From the NCBI RefSeq assembly GCF_054482525.1, contig NZ_CM137006.1: DNA of 64,000 nt; one strand, given 5' to 3'. Every line of letters begins with the position of its first letter. The stretch's first letter is position 1. A model generated the notes under the pieces. The model was not told the DNA's origin and searched no databases. It worked only from the letters and a program-made list of their open reading frames with translations. Below are positions 13,931-24,005 of the stretch, in pieces. The translations under genes and the position numbers were made by a program.

Positions 13931-14380
13931 ATGAAGAAAGCAACACTTGTGATTGGCGTTATTGGCGCGGACTGCCATGCAGTAGGCAATAAAGTTCTGG
14001 ACCGCGTTTTTAGCAACCATGACTTCAGAGTTATTAATCTGGGCGTAATGGTCAGCCAGGACGAATATATTGATGCTGCCATTGAAACTGGTGCTGACGC
14101 GATTGTCGTCTCCTCTATCTATGGGCATGGCGATATCGATTGTCTGGGCATGCGCGAACGCTGCATCGAGCGTGGGCTGGGTAACATCCTGCTCTATGTG
14201 GGCGGTAACCTGGTGGTCGGAAAACATGACTTCGCTGACGTGGAAACCAAGTTCAAAGAGATGGGATTTGATCGCGTCTTTTCCCCAAGTCATGACTTAG
14301 AAGATGTTTGTCAGCTGATGGCCCACGATATCAACCAACGTCATGACGTTGATACTCGCATTCTTGAAGAGGCAATCTGA
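13931..14380 (+). CDS. glmS: Glutamate mutase sigma (S) subunit, B12-binding
   Basis: [27 protein letters not shown]... contains the cobalamin-binding DxHxxG-type motif and Rossmann-like fold typical of MutS/GlmS; start chosen at ATG with AAGGA RBS. Confidence 0.85.
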
Positions 14381-15768
14381 TGCAAATCGTCTCTGTCGAT
14401 ATTGGATCGACGTGGACCAAAGCAGCCCTCTTCACCCGGGAGGGGGACGCGTTAACGTTGGTTAACCACGTTCTGACCCCAACCACCACCCATCATCTGG
14501 CGAAGGGGTTTTTCTCCAGCCTGGACCAGGTGTTAAACGTAGATAATGCCCTCCCCCTGTTAAACAGTGGTGAGGTTGCATTGAAGTATTCCTCCTCTGC
14601 CAAAGGTGGGCTGGCGGTTGCCGCAATGGGATTGGTGCCTTCTATCACCCTGGAAACCGCGAAAGTAACCGCTCACTCTGCGGGTGCTAAAATTGCGCAA
14701 TATTACGCCTACAAGCTGAACCGCCGTGATATCCAGGCACTGGAAGAAACGCAGCCCGATATTCTCTTGTTCACCGGCGGCACCGATGGCGGAGAAGAAA
14801 GCTACGGACTGAATAACGCCCGTGTGTTGGCAGAATCCAAACTCGACTGCGCCATTATTTATGCCGGAAACCGGGATATTCAGGACGAGGTGCAGGAGAT
14901 CCTCGGGCATAAAGACCTGACCATCGTCGACAACGTTCTGCCCGATCTTGACCATCCGAACCCTTTAGCTGCACGCCAGGCTATCTGCGACATATTCCTT
15001 AAACGCATCGTTAAAGGGAAAGGGTTGGATGTCATTGTTGATAAAACAGGCGAAGAACCAATGCCGACACCATGGACGGTCTTTGAACTGGTTAAGGCAA
15101 TCAGTAACGTCGATCACAGCTGGAAAGAGTTCATGCTGATCGACATGGGTGGCGCAACCACCGATGTCTATTCCGCCTGTGCCAACACGCTCTCGCCCGA
15201 CACCGTTTTACACGGCGTACCGGAACCCTTCGTGAAACGGACGGTGGAAGGCGATCTGGGAATGCGCGTCTCGGCAATGGTGGTTGGTGAAAGTGCGAAA
15301 GAGTTAGTCAATGTGAATTTTGCTCAGCAACCCGCACAGCTGGACGCTTTTTATCATTACCTCCGCCATCTAGTCGCTCATCCCGACTACTTACCCGCGA
15401 ATGCAGAAGAAAAATATTTCGATACCGTCCTGGCCGGACTGTGTGTGGGTTATGCCACCGAAAGACATGCGGGCACCAAAAAAGAGGTCTGCACCTGCGT
15501 CGGCAATGTCGATTTACAGATGGGACGTGACCTGACAACCGTGCGTAAAGTCGTTGGTTCCGGCGGATGGCTCTCGCGTGCCAGTCAGTTCGATATGCAT
15601 CACTGGTTGAAATACCGCGAGTTAAACGACGACGGTAAACGCATTCTCTTACCGACCGAATTTGAATATTACCGCGATTCCCGGGGGCTATTACCACTGC
15701 TGGCAAACGTCGCCAGAGTCGATCCACTGGCCGCCGCGCGCACCAGTATTCAATGCTTAACCCTATAA
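14380..15768 (+). CDS. glmL: Glutamate mutase-associated protein MutL/GlmL (putative reactivating chaperone)
   Basis: 462 aa, same length as clostridial MutL; ATGA overlap with glmS stop; positioned between S and E subunit genes as in clostridia. Confidence 0.8.
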   Translation: MQIVSVDIGSTWTKAALFTREGDALTLVNHVLTPTTTHHLAKGFFSSLDQVLNVDNALPLLNSGEVALKYSSSAKGGLAVAAMGLVPSITLETAKVTAHSAGAKIAQYYAYKLNRRDIQALEETQPDILLFTGGTDGGEESYGLNNARVLAESKLDCAIIYAGNRDIQDEVQEILGHKDLTIVDNVLPDLDHPNPLAARQAICDIFLKRIVKGKGLDVIVDKTGEEPMPTPWTVFELVKAISNVDHSWKEFMLIDMGGATTDVYSACANTLSPDTVLHGVPEPFVKRTVEGDLGMRVSAMVVGESAKELVNVNFAQQPAQLDAFYHYLRHLVAHPDYLPANAEEKYFDTVLAGLCVGYATERHAGTKKEVCTCVGNVDLQMGRDLTTVRKVVGSGGWLSRASQFDMHHWLKYRELNDDGKRILLPTEFEYYRDSRGLLPLLANVARVDPLAAARTSIQCLTL

Positions 15769-15786
15769 CAATTAAGGCTGCAATCA

Positions 15787-17232
15787 ATGGAACTTCGAAA
15801 TAAGAAATTAACCCATGACGAATTCATGACCGAGCGGCAACAGGTACTGAAAACCTGGGAAACCGGCAAGGATGTTGAAAACTTTGAAGATGGCGTTAAA
15901 TACCAACAAACCATTCCGGAGCATAAACGCTTCTCTCTTGCCCTGCTGAAAGCAGACAAGGAAGGTAAAACTCTTAGCCAACCGCGCGCAGGCGTGGCGC
16001 TGATGGACGAACACATCGAACTACTGAAAACACTACAAGAAGAGTGCGATCTGCTGCCGAGCACCATCGATGCATATACCCGTCTGAATCGGTACGAAGA
16101 AGCGGCTGTAGGGATTAAAAAATCCATCGAAGCCGGAACCTCTAAACTGAACGGTTTACCGGTCGTTAACCATGGCGTCGCAGCTTGCCGTCGCCTCACC
16201 GAAACTCTGCAAAAACCGCTACAGATCCGCCACGGCACGCCAGATGCGCGTCTGCTGGCTGAAATCTCGATGGCCAGCGGCTTTACCAGTTATGAAGGCG
16301 GCGGCATTTCCTACAATATTCCGTATGCCAAGCGCGTAACGCTGGAAAAATCGATCCGCGACTGGCAGTACTGCGACCGTTTAATGGGGATGTATGAAGA
16401 ACACGGGATCCGCATCAACCGCGAACCGTTTGGCCCACTAACGGGTACGCTGATCCCGCCGTTTATCTCGCACTCTATCGCGATAATCGAAGGATTACTG
16501 GCGCTGGAACAGGGTGTGAAATCTATCACCGTTGGTTATGGACAGGTCGGCAGCCTTACGCAGGATGTCGCGGCGATCCAGTCTCTGCGTGAACTTGCAC
16601 ACGAATACTTTCAGAGCTATGGCTATACCGACTATGAATTAAGTACCGTATTTCACCAGTGGATGGGCGGCTTTCCGGAAGACGAATCGAAAGCGTTCGC
16701 CATTATCTCCTGGGGTGCAGCCGTCGCGGGGATGTCTGGTGCCACCAAAGTCATCACCAAAAGTCCGCACGAAGCCTGGGGCATCCCGACTGCCACTGCC
16801 AACATTCAGGGGCTGAAAGCCTCCCGCCAGATGCTCAACATGGTCAATGAGCAGAAATTCCCGCCGTGCCCTGCGGTTGAACTGGAAATTGAACTGATTA
16901 AGAGCGAGGTTCGCGCGGTACTCAATAAAGTGTTCGAATTGGGTAATGGTGATATTGCGCGCGGTACGGTGCTGGCATTTGAAGCGGGCGTACTGGATGT
17001 GCCGTTTGCACCAGCCGCGTGTAACGCGGGCAAAATTCTTCCTGTCCGTGATAACACCGGCGCGATACGCGTACTGGAAGCCGGAGCCGTTCCATTGCCA
17101 AAAGATATTCTCGACCTCCACCACGATTACGTTGCTGAACGCGCACGCTTTGAAGGACGCCAACCGACATTCCAGATGGTTGTAGATGACATCAATGCTG
17201 TATCCCACAGTAAATTAATAGGAAGACCATAA
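15787..17232 (+). CDS. glmE: Glutamate mutase epsilon (E) catalytic subunit
   Basis: 481 aa, TIM-barrel-type GlmE-like sequence; operon context with glmS/glmL/mal. Confidence 0.85.
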   Translation: MELRNKKLTHDEFMTERQQVLKTWETGKDVENFEDGVKYQQTIPEHKRFSLALLKADKEGKTLSQPRAGVALMDEHIELLKTLQEECDLLPSTIDAYTRLNRYEEAAVGIKKSIEAGTSKLNGLPVVNHGVAACRRLTETLQKPLQIRHGTPDARLLAEISMASGFTSYEGGGISYNIPYAKRVTLEKSIRDWQYCDRLMGMYEEHGIRINREPFGPLTGTLIPPFISHSIAIIEGLLALEQGVKSITVGYGQVGSLTQDVAAIQSLRELAHEYFQSYGYTDYELSTVFHQWMGGFPEDESKAFAIISWGAAVAGMSGATKVITKSPHEAWGIPTATANIQGLKASRQMLNMVNEQKFPPCPAVELEIELIKSEVRAVLNKVFELGNGDIARGTVLAFEAGVLDVPFAPAACNAGKILPVRDNTGAIRVLEAGAVPLPKDILDLHHDYVAERARFEGRQPTFQMVVDDINAVSHSKLIGRP

Positions 17233-23362: not shown

Positions 23363-23371
23363 GGAAAATGA

Positions 23372-23974
23372 ATGGAAGCGCGAATTTCAACTGAACGGCA
23401 TGTGCAGCACCAGCAAAAATTGAAGGAACAGGTCGATACGCGCGTCGCGGCGGCGATAGAGAAAAAAGGGATCTTGATTGTTTTCACCGGCAACGGCAAA
23501 GGGAAATCCACTGCCGCGTTTGGTACTGTGACGCGCGCGGTGGGTCATGGCAAAACGGTGGGGGTTGCGCAGTACATCAAGGGGCAATGGGACAACGGCG
23601 AATACAACCTTCTCCAGCCGCTGGGGGTTGAGTTTCATATTATGGGAACCGGTTTTACCTGGGAGACACAGAACCGGCAAGCGGATATCGACGCGGCGAA
23701 AGAGGTCTGGTCGGAAAGCAAACGGATGCTGGCTGACAAGCGTTACGACTTAGTGGTGCTTGATGAGCTGACCTATATGCTGGCTTACCATTATCTGGAC
23801 ACCGAAGAAGTGATCGCTTCTCTGCAAAACCGCCCGGCACAACAAAGTGTCATTGTCACCGGACGCGGTTGCCACAGTCAGATATTAAAAATGGCGGATA
23901 CGGTCAGCGAAATCCGCCCCGTCAAACATGCTTTTGATAACGGCATTCAGGCGCAGCCGGGTATCGACTGGTAA
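23372..23974 (+). CDS. Cob(I)alamin adenosyltransferase paralog (CobA/BtuR family)
   Basis: 200 aa; GILIVFTGNGKGKSTAAFG P-loop and overall similarity to E. coli BtuR (IIVFTGNGKGKTTAAFG). Confidence 0.85.
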   Translation: MEARISTERHVQHQQKLKEQVDTRVAAAIEKKGILIVFTGNGKGKSTAAFGTVTRAVGHGKTVGVAQYIKGQWDNGEYNLLQPLGVEFHIMGTGFTWETQNRQADIDAAKEVWSESKRMLADKRYDLVVLDELTYMLAYHYLDTEEVIASLQNRPAQQSVIVTGRGCHSQILKMADTVSEIRPVKHAFDNGIQAQPGIDW

Positions 23975-23981
23975 TAAATAT

Positions 23982-24005
23982 CCTCCGGCATAGCCGGAGG
24001 TTTTT
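23982..24005 (+). terminator. Rho-independent terminator of the glutamate-catabolism operon
   Basis: CCTCCGGC-ATA-GCCGGAGG followed by TTTTT immediately after the adenosyltransferase stop. Confidence 0.7.

Follow-up and report, generated by a model that had tools for sequence, protein, structure and literature searches.

The stretch of DNA analysed here, referred to below as the window, comprises 64,000 nucleotides (nt) of contig NZ_CM137006.1 from the NCBI RefSeq assembly GCF_054482525.1 and is part of the Escherichia coli chromosome. Its segment 13500-24300 carries a cluster of genes for glutamate catabolism; the segment is 100% identical in strains SCU-102, 19KM1776 and PCN033, at least 80% of it was found in 1,117 of 5,426 complete E. 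coli genomes, and approximately 1,123 of the 5,426 are carriers of the cluster. Kronen & Berg (2015, PLoS One, PMC4682846, Fig. 5) reported a methylaspartate-pathway cluster from E. coli O157:H7 and further Enterobacteriaceae, comprising glutamate mutase, methylaspartate ammonia-lyase, a DUF1446 protein, 'GltP', FumD, an adenosyltransferase (CobA/CobO) and a LysR regulator, and the region studied here is this published cluster. A first-pass annotation of the window had described it as a tightly packed operon of ten genes that ends in a strong terminator. The gene identities given there were correct, all genes lie on the + strand within 13931-23974, and the tight layout is real but ordinary; the number of genes is nine according to the RefSeq annotation and Pfam. 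The description was thus correct but ordinary, and the cluster was already known.

Glutamate (methylaspartate) mutase is encoded by the first three genes: glmS (13931-14380) for the B12-binding S subunit (Pfam B12-binding; NCBIfam NF002612 and TIGR01501 equivalogs above their cut-offs; RefSeq), glmL (14380-15768) for the mutase accessory protein (Pfam MutL, 467 bits; NCBIfam accessory_GlmL, 511 bits versus a cut-off of 475) and glmE (15787-17232) for the catalytic E subunit (Pfam Met_asp_mut_E, 713 bits). They are followed by mal (17232-18473), encoding methylaspartate ammonia-lyase (Pfam MAAL_N and MAAL_C), and by cmlA (18477-19847) and cmlB (19844-20161), whose products belong to the AtuA/DUF1446 and DUF4387 families (Pfam AtuA and DUF4387) and, on the basis of PDB matches presented below, are the predicted large and small subunits of citramalate lyase. 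The remaining genes code for a sodium:dicarboxylate-family (SDF) symporter (20322-21602; Pfam SDF, 343 bits; ATG at 20322 after a conserved GGAG), for FumD, a class I fumarase acting as mesaconase (21710-23362; Pfam Fumerase and Fumerase_C; NCBIfam NF011921, 1282 bits versus a cut-off of 1060), and for the ATP:cob(I)alamin adenosyltransferase CobO (23372-23974; Pfam CobA_CobO_BtuR; NCBIfam TIGR00708 above the cut-off).

The gene set and the gene order are those of the O157:H7 cluster, and in an O157:H7 genome the layout recurs at the same locus with proteins 98-100% identical. The present strain differs in having the insertion sequence (IS) IS200C between cobO and the native terminator. The clostridial clusters of Clostridium tetanomorphum and C. 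tetani (PMC4682846) share with the E. coli one the chemistry leading from glutamate to pyruvate and acetate and the core order glmS-glmL-glmE-mal, but they encode a two-subunit mesaconase instead of the single-chain class I fumarase FumD, and a citramalate lyase of the citrate-lyase type, unrelated to the two-subunit CmlA/CmlB (AtuA/DUF4387) predicted in E. coli. The symporter, cobO and the LysR regulator of the E. coli cluster are further differences.

The 2015 account (PMC4682846) reported the enzymology of the O157:H7 FumD orthologue, found no growth condition that turns on these O157:H7 genes and offered no explanation for the DUF1446 protein or for what becomes of (S)-citramalate; the word 'operon' has 0 occurrences in its main text. 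The AtuA/DUF4387 pair lies 3' of mal in loci of Proteobacteria, Acidobacteria, Aminicenantes and Firmicutes, and since it follows mal across phyla it was suspected to be the missing citramalate step. In the phmmer search CmlA matched PDB 9erq_A/9evf, 'Citramalate lyase, subunit A (cmlA)', over 456/456 residues with approximately 91% identity (E = 4.6e-292), and CmlB matched PDB 9erq_B, 'Citramalate lyase, subunit B (cmlB)', over residues 1-104 (E = 5e-57). The DUF1446/DUF4387 pair of the published cluster is now named citramalate lyase CmlA/CmlB in PDB 9erq/9evf. Judging by these matches CmlA and CmlB are the citramalate cleavage step absent from the 2015 account, and with them the encoded pathway to pyruvate and acetate would be complete. 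The module had been called self-sufficient, and this is supported, as CmlA/CmlB would supply the missing step, with the corrinoid itself excepted. E. coli must import corrinoid, and CobO merely adenosylates it.

The cmlB gene is AT-rich (GC 0.39, GC at third codon positions, GC3, 0.33) in comparison with the overlapping cmlA (GC3 0.62) and the rest of the cluster, and the CmlB protein is identical in three compared E. coli strains despite the AT-rich gene. With GC values only slightly lower in the symporter gene and in fumD, base composition was set aside as a means of marking modules. Another open reading frame (ORF) stands right after cmlB in the non-enterobacterial loci L060, L066, L069, L072, L082 and L083; it has a shared motif of the type '(Y)YAPRGR..LY.L..EL..RY' and may be a further partner gene of the core module.

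The symporter scored below the NCBIfam cut-offs for GltP (302 vs 638 bits) and for DctA (312 vs 513 bits), so its substrate can be assigned only from context; the name GltP was given to it by Kronen & Berg (PMC4682846). Genes of B12 supply were found 5' of glmS in other genera: a tetrapyrrole methylase and a GHMP kinase gene in Yersinia and Hafnia, genes for a TonB-dependent receptor and a BtuF-like binding protein in Yokenella, and a gene for a CysG-N-like protein in Morganella. Lineage-specific cobalamin-related genes were noted at L046:4487-6172, L044:4253-6420 and L051:5034-6044.

The eight junctions, read from the sequence, measure -1, 18, -1, 3, -4, 160, 107 and 9 nt in order, i.e. 6/8 are of 18 nt or less. 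The glmS/glmL and glmE/mal pairs overlap by 1 nt (TGATG and TAATG, respectively) and cmlA/cmlB by 4 nt (ATGA), the 18-nt glmL/glmE gap contains AAGG, and a Shine-Dalgarno-like purine run is present ahead of every start codon. The distance from cmlB to the symporter ATG (20322) is 160 nt, from the symporter gene to fumD 107 nt and from fumD to cobO 9 nt. The junctions listed in the first-pass annotation were borne out by the sequence except one, the mal to cmlA distance being 3 nt and not 4. Overlaps of 1 and 4 nt are the usual spacing within bacterial operons, so the overlap pattern was to be expected. Eighty loci were fetched with a Mal query, their genes were mapped by tblastn and the cmlB-symporter gap was extracted from each. 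The tight junctions (-1, ~18, -1, 3, -4 and 9) are conserved to the nucleotide across genera of Enterobacteriaceae, which indicates that the layout is maintained. The two large gaps split the cluster into three sub-blocks: glmS-cmlB, the symporter gene alone and fumD-cobO.

Most other genera have a tenth gene, for a 333-amino-acid glutaminase with a signal-peptide-like N-terminus, flanked by the symporter gene and fumD (L013:14528-15529 and the corresponding place in most Citrobacter, Klebsiella, Enterobacter and Salmonella diarizonae loci). It is missing from E. coli, from one C. amalonaticus strain and from S. arizonae. The 107-nt symporter-fumD gap of E. coli showed no structure, folding no better than shuffled sequence. 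The gap resembles the 3' portion of the spacer that separates the glutaminase gene from fumD in other genera and includes a decayed repetitive extragenic palindromic (REP)-like segment, which is suggestive only of a possible deletion scar.

The 160-nt gap contains the hairpin that had been noted earlier for its 9-bp stem, and 20245-20253 and 20268-20276 do form a perfect inverted repeat. By folding and covariation, the intercistronic RNA hairpin extends over 20244-20277 on the + strand and has 15 pairs, 9 of them perfect Watson-Crick core pairs, and the loop CUUU (-23.2 kcal/mol, z = -5.0 vs shuffles). In E. coli it is followed by UCUCCUGAUU, with no U-run, and it was not listed by the terminator scan; in Citrobacter and Klebsiella ACCCUACA follows the hairpin stem. 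With these tails the hairpin is not a canonical intrinsic terminator in E. coli, Citrobacter and Klebsiella. The helix was recovered by RNAalifold from a flank-anchored alignment of 24 enterobacterial gap sequences, in which 13/15 hairpin pairs show compensatory double changes and 94% of the hairpin cells are paired, in comparison to 25-45% with slid partners used as a control. Pairing reaches 94% on the sense strand (G-U accounts for 12% of cells) and 84% on the antisense strand, and the lower value for the latter argues that the structure is selected in the sense RNA. A strong hairpin of differing sequence is present at the cmlB 3' gap in every enterobacterial genus examined, i.e. it is the structure that is conserved. 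In Paludibacterium the cluster ends after cmlB and a textbook terminator with a T-run occupies the hairpin position. We read the hairpin as the former terminator of the six-gene core, kept as an intercistronic stem-loop when further genes were appended. Most likely it acts now as a decay barrier, a processing site or a leaky attenuator and not as a full terminator.

Intercistronic stem-loops such as the REP hairpins between malE and malF and those of the puf operon reportedly set differential mRNA stability. By analogy, the hairpin studied here would be a stable, U-run-free element separating a block of highly expressed enzymes from a gene for a membrane protein, with the structure conserved and the sequence free. 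It differs from the malE-malF case in not being a REP element in the E. coli cluster and in being terminator-like in some genera.

The Rfam scan (E <= 1 for the E. coli region, gathering threshold for four other genera) revealed no cobalamin or other riboswitch; its matches were the IS200-derived STnc490, a weak sub-threshold Ysr202 at the cobO end and tRNAs. Sigma-54, CRP and CsrA motifs were considered for the cmlB-symporter gap and none fitted by inspection of the alignment. A small ORF in this gap was also rejected: E. coli has lost the ATG found in the conserved block, and the differences in loop length do not preserve a reading frame. K. oxytoca and one C. amalonaticus strain have enlarged cmlB-symporter gaps of 364 nt (L014:12931-13294) and 282 nt (L038:12931-13212); the additional DNA is highly structured and may be a small repeat element, possibly ERIC/MITE-like.

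Upstream of glmS lies an invariant 20-bp box, TTTGAAAATAGATCAATTGC (13798-13817, + strand), 114 nt before the glmS ATG, which is a candidate site for a LysR-type regulator. The box includes the dyad TTGA-N7-TCAA (13799-13813) of the T-N11-A type, a motif typical of LysR-type regulators. In an alignment of the 330 nt 5' of glmS the box is the one invariant block, with varying flanks, among genera whose proteins are approximately 85% identical. Every Escherichia, Citrobacter, Klebsiella, Enterobacter, Salmonella and Buttiauxella locus has a single copy, with at most 1 mismatch, whose first base lies 109-137 nt ahead of the glmS start codon (243 nt in one locus that has an insertion). The box is unique in the window, with none before the E. 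coli symporter gene or fumD. Yersinia has boxes with 2 mismatches 5' of glmS, and in Azoarcus the gap between the divergent lysR and glmS holds a looser version with 5 mismatches. An FNR site was rejected by inspection, TTGAA-N5-ATCAA being one base too long versus the FNR consensus TTGAT-N4-ATCAA.

A second conserved block, GATCACAA (13655-13672 in the window, GTTGATCACAATTATCTC), was found approximately 140 nt upstream of the LysR-type box in nearly all aligned genera. The block may serve a further regulator; a CRP half-site was weighed, for which the left half is a poor match.

The LysR-type (GcvA-like) regulator gene (24719-25624, - strand; Pfam HTH_1 and LysR_substrate) is the presumed regulator of the cluster and would act through the 20-bp box. 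In Escherichia, Citrobacter and Klebsiella the cluster and lysR converge, with lysR at the 3' end, i.e. not divergent to its presumed target promoter, and such a position does not exclude regulation of the cluster. The gene is divergent and immediately upstream of glmS in Paludibacterium and Azoarcus, and several kb upstream on the opposite strand, beyond other genes, in Yersinia and Yokenella. The single box and the linkage of lysR through every rearrangement favour, short of proof, one LysR-controlled promoter in E. coli. The 547-bp region upstream of glmS has 32% GC, and this AT-richness suggests silencing by H-NS, which would be consistent with the failed laboratory expression. A scan for sigma-70 sites, a simple consensus match and as such uninformative for an activator-dependent promoter, gave fewer sites than shuffles and no + strand site upstream of glmS or in either large gap.

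At the 3' end of the cluster, the strong terminator proposed by the first-pass annotation corresponds to a hairpin followed by TTTTT at 23982-24000. It is a terminator in function, but its sequence belongs to IS200C, a 711-bp insertion at approximately 23978-24688 (- strand; ends ambiguous by 3 nt, TAA) with tnpA at 24082-24540 (-) and the hairpin in question as its terminal one. The 711 bp stand between TGGTAATAA and CTGCG, and the IS-free allele reads TGGTAATAA directly followed by CTGCG. In an IS-free strain the cobO stop is followed by CTGCGTCTGGCATCCCGCCAGGCGCAG-GTTTTAC and then by the lysR stop codon. The IS200C sequence including the hairpin recurs in another genome next to luxS, an unrelated site. 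Missing from the IS-free allele but carried by an IS copy at another site, the hairpin 23982-24000 does not count as the terminator of the cluster itself. The cobO-IS200 junction was found in 5 genomes among the approximately 1,123 cluster carriers; the IS200 here is a recent and rare insertion. The element shows nothing unusual for the IS200/IS605 family: a Y1-transposase gene tnpA (152 amino acids), a length of about 0.7 kb, hairpins at both ends, the STnc490 5' untranslated region RNA (Rfam, 146 bits against a gathering score of 56; 24550-24673, - strand) and no target duplication discernible beyond the 3-nt ambiguity. Because of where the element sits, its end hairpin and T-run stand in for a terminator of read-through from cobO.

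The native terminator, common to the convergent cobO and lysR, lies at 24689-24715 and was listed on both strands by the terminator scan. It consists of an 11-bp G+C-rich stem followed, on the + strand, by GUUUUAC (-25.0 kcal/mol, z = -6.5), and in IS-free strains it is directly 3' of the cobO stop. A stable hairpin or REP elements occupy the cobO-lysR gap in every genus examined. A caution for scans of raw sequence follows from this locus: IS200 terminal hairpins can mimic operon terminators.

Taken as a whole, the cluster is probably best explained as the enterobacterial methylaspartate (mesaconate) module, which turns glutamate into pyruvate, acetate and ammonia and is expressed from one promoter. 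The SDF symporter would import the substrate, GlmS/GlmE together with GlmL would convert glutamate to 3-methylaspartate using adenosylcobalamin made by CobO from imported corrinoid, Mal would remove ammonia to give mesaconate, FumD would hydrate mesaconate to (S)-citramalate, and CmlA/CmlB would cleave citramalate to pyruvate and acetate. A single promoter, located in the AT-rich stretch 5' of glmS and probably controlled by the linked LysR-type regulator acting at the box 13798-13817, most likely serves all nine genes, so that a single LysR-controlled transcript of nine genes is likely. The sub-blocks glmS-cmlB, symporter and fumD-cobO are tightly packed and probably translationally coupled. 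The stem-loop 20244-20277 would mark the old 3' end of the six-gene core and set the enzyme/transporter ratio in E. coli. Transcription would natively end at the hairpin common with lysR (24689-24715), and in this strain the transcript would meet the IS200C terminal hairpin and its U-run before the native terminator.

Several observations weigh against a single nine-gene transcript and are shared, in part, by an account that we regard as considerably less probable, namely that three units with their own promoters, glmS-cmlB with the hairpin as its end, the lone symporter gene and fumD-cobO, are merely juxtaposed. A literature search found no transcript or transcription start site data on the cluster. 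The two large gaps (160 and 107 nt) are evolutionary breakpoints at which the cluster gains, loses or inverts genes in other genera: in Yersinia lysR-fumD-cobO is inverted and placed upstream of glmS, and in Morganella and Hafnia glmS through the symporter gene are present with fumD-cobO not nearby. E. whittamii is without the symporter gene and cobO. A box-like site lies approximately 150 nt 5' of the separately oriented fumD in three Yersinia species. After cmlB, in addition to the T-run terminator of Paludibacterium, the hairpin of Yersinia, Hafnia and Morganella is nearer the stop codon and has a T-rich tail, and the symporter gene of Citrobacter, Buttiauxella and Enterobacter has REP elements or terminator-like hairpins with a T-run on its 3' side. 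Given these breakpoints and T-run hairpins, E. coli may have internal promoters. On the other hand, the E. coli hairpin is followed by UCUCCUGAUU and not by a U-run, neither gap has a LysR-type box or a sigma-70-like + strand site, the symporter-fumD gap folds no better than shuffles, and the selection of the hairpin in the sense RNA implies that the gap is transcribed in the sense direction. Expression from the one promoter upstream of glmS is therefore preferred.

The 160-nt cmlB-symporter region could alternatively be a cis-regulatory RNA, responsive to a ligand, a protein or a small RNA, that hides the ribosome-binding site of the symporter gene. Two covarying hairpins and near-invariant single-stranded blocks (ATGCGGTTGGTCACAAC, CCCTACA) outside E. 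coli would fit it, as would a long-range UUCAUGCG/CGAUGGA pairing over the ribosome-binding site, 95% maintained and including G-U changes in E. coli. The changes in this pairing, however, are all one-sided and none is a compensatory double change, E. coli itself lacks helix 1 and the conserved blocks, and there is no match to an Rfam family. In the Yersinia gaps only a 4-bp complement to the symporter ribosome-binding site was seen by inspection, so the pairing appears not to be conserved there. The free sequence and variable loop of the hairpin fit a stability element better than a ligand pocket, and we consider such an RNA very unlikely. A bolder and quite doubtful idea is that the non-coding parts together form the switch of a laboratory-silent operon, with the box as the LysR operator for a gut signal and the cmlB-symporter RNA gating the transporter/enzyme ratio. 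The hairpin is best taken as the stem-loop left from the old end of the six-gene core.

It had also been proposed that the module was selected as one transferable unit. The presence of the cluster in approximately 1,123/5,426 complete E. coli genomes is patchy, K-12 has mngR-mngA-mngB in the sucD-cydA slot instead, the edges contain low-GC (32-38%) DNA, two orphan genes and an IS, and the nine- or ten-gene order is conserved over many genera, all of which would suit a horizontally mobile island. In the window the cluster is flanked on the 3' side by the IS200C transposase gene, the convergent lysR and sucD and on the 5' side by the two low-GC orphan genes and cydA. The same sucD-cydA slot holds the cluster in Escherichia, Klebsiella, Salmonella arizonae and Pseudescherichia (the Citrobacter loci reach cydA only and that of S. 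diarizonae sucD only), and such common chromosomal neighbours across genera fit ancestry with loss, or allelic replacement. The RefSeq annotation shows no integrase, tRNA attachment site or conjugation genes, and the late IS200 is the only source of mobility genes in the block; no search was made for flanking direct repeats. The GC of the cluster is near that of the host, the IS200 is recent and rare, and the unit is modular and not fixed. Plasmid carriage was rejected, the four PLSDB 'plasmid' matches being records of 416 kb to 4.9 Mb, i.e. chromosomes or fragments. Transfer as one unit is thus weakly supported and an island of this kind is unlikely; ancestral presence with loss, or allelic replacement via the flanking core genes, fits better. 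The PLSDB records (NZ_CP134663.1; NZ_CP141089.1, 4.9 Mb; CP088669.1, 730 kb; NZ_CP022118.1, 416 kb) indicate that plasmid counts for chromosomal genes taken from this database call for care.

The two orphan genes, 11936-12880 (314 amino acids) and 12961-13383 (140 amino acids), lie on the + strand between cydA and the glmS promoter region, have a GC of 37-38% and gave no match in Pfam, NCBIfam or PADLOC. They were found in E. coli loci and are absent from the Citrobacter, Klebsiella and Salmonella loci checked; the first has a 50%-identical relative in Escherichia sp. MOD1. Farther upstream, the window contains a seven-tRNA cluster (1133-2034, - strand) of five tRNA-Lys-UUU and two tRNA-Val-UAC genes. 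A five-fold repeat of TTGATTAAAAGTCAA at 1167-2007, met in the search for dyad motifs, corresponds to the tRNA-Lys genes.

These results leave the general understanding of operons unchanged. What they add to the known cluster is a corrected map of nine genes, a pathway that would be completed via CmlA/CmlB and, in this strain, an IS-borne terminator. The 20-bp box and the intercistronic hairpin are two conserved non-coding targets for seeking the inducing signal. About one fifth of E. coli strains, including most of O157:H7, and many opportunistic Enterobacteriaceae would have a B12-dependent route by which gut glutamate may be turned into pyruvate and acetate.

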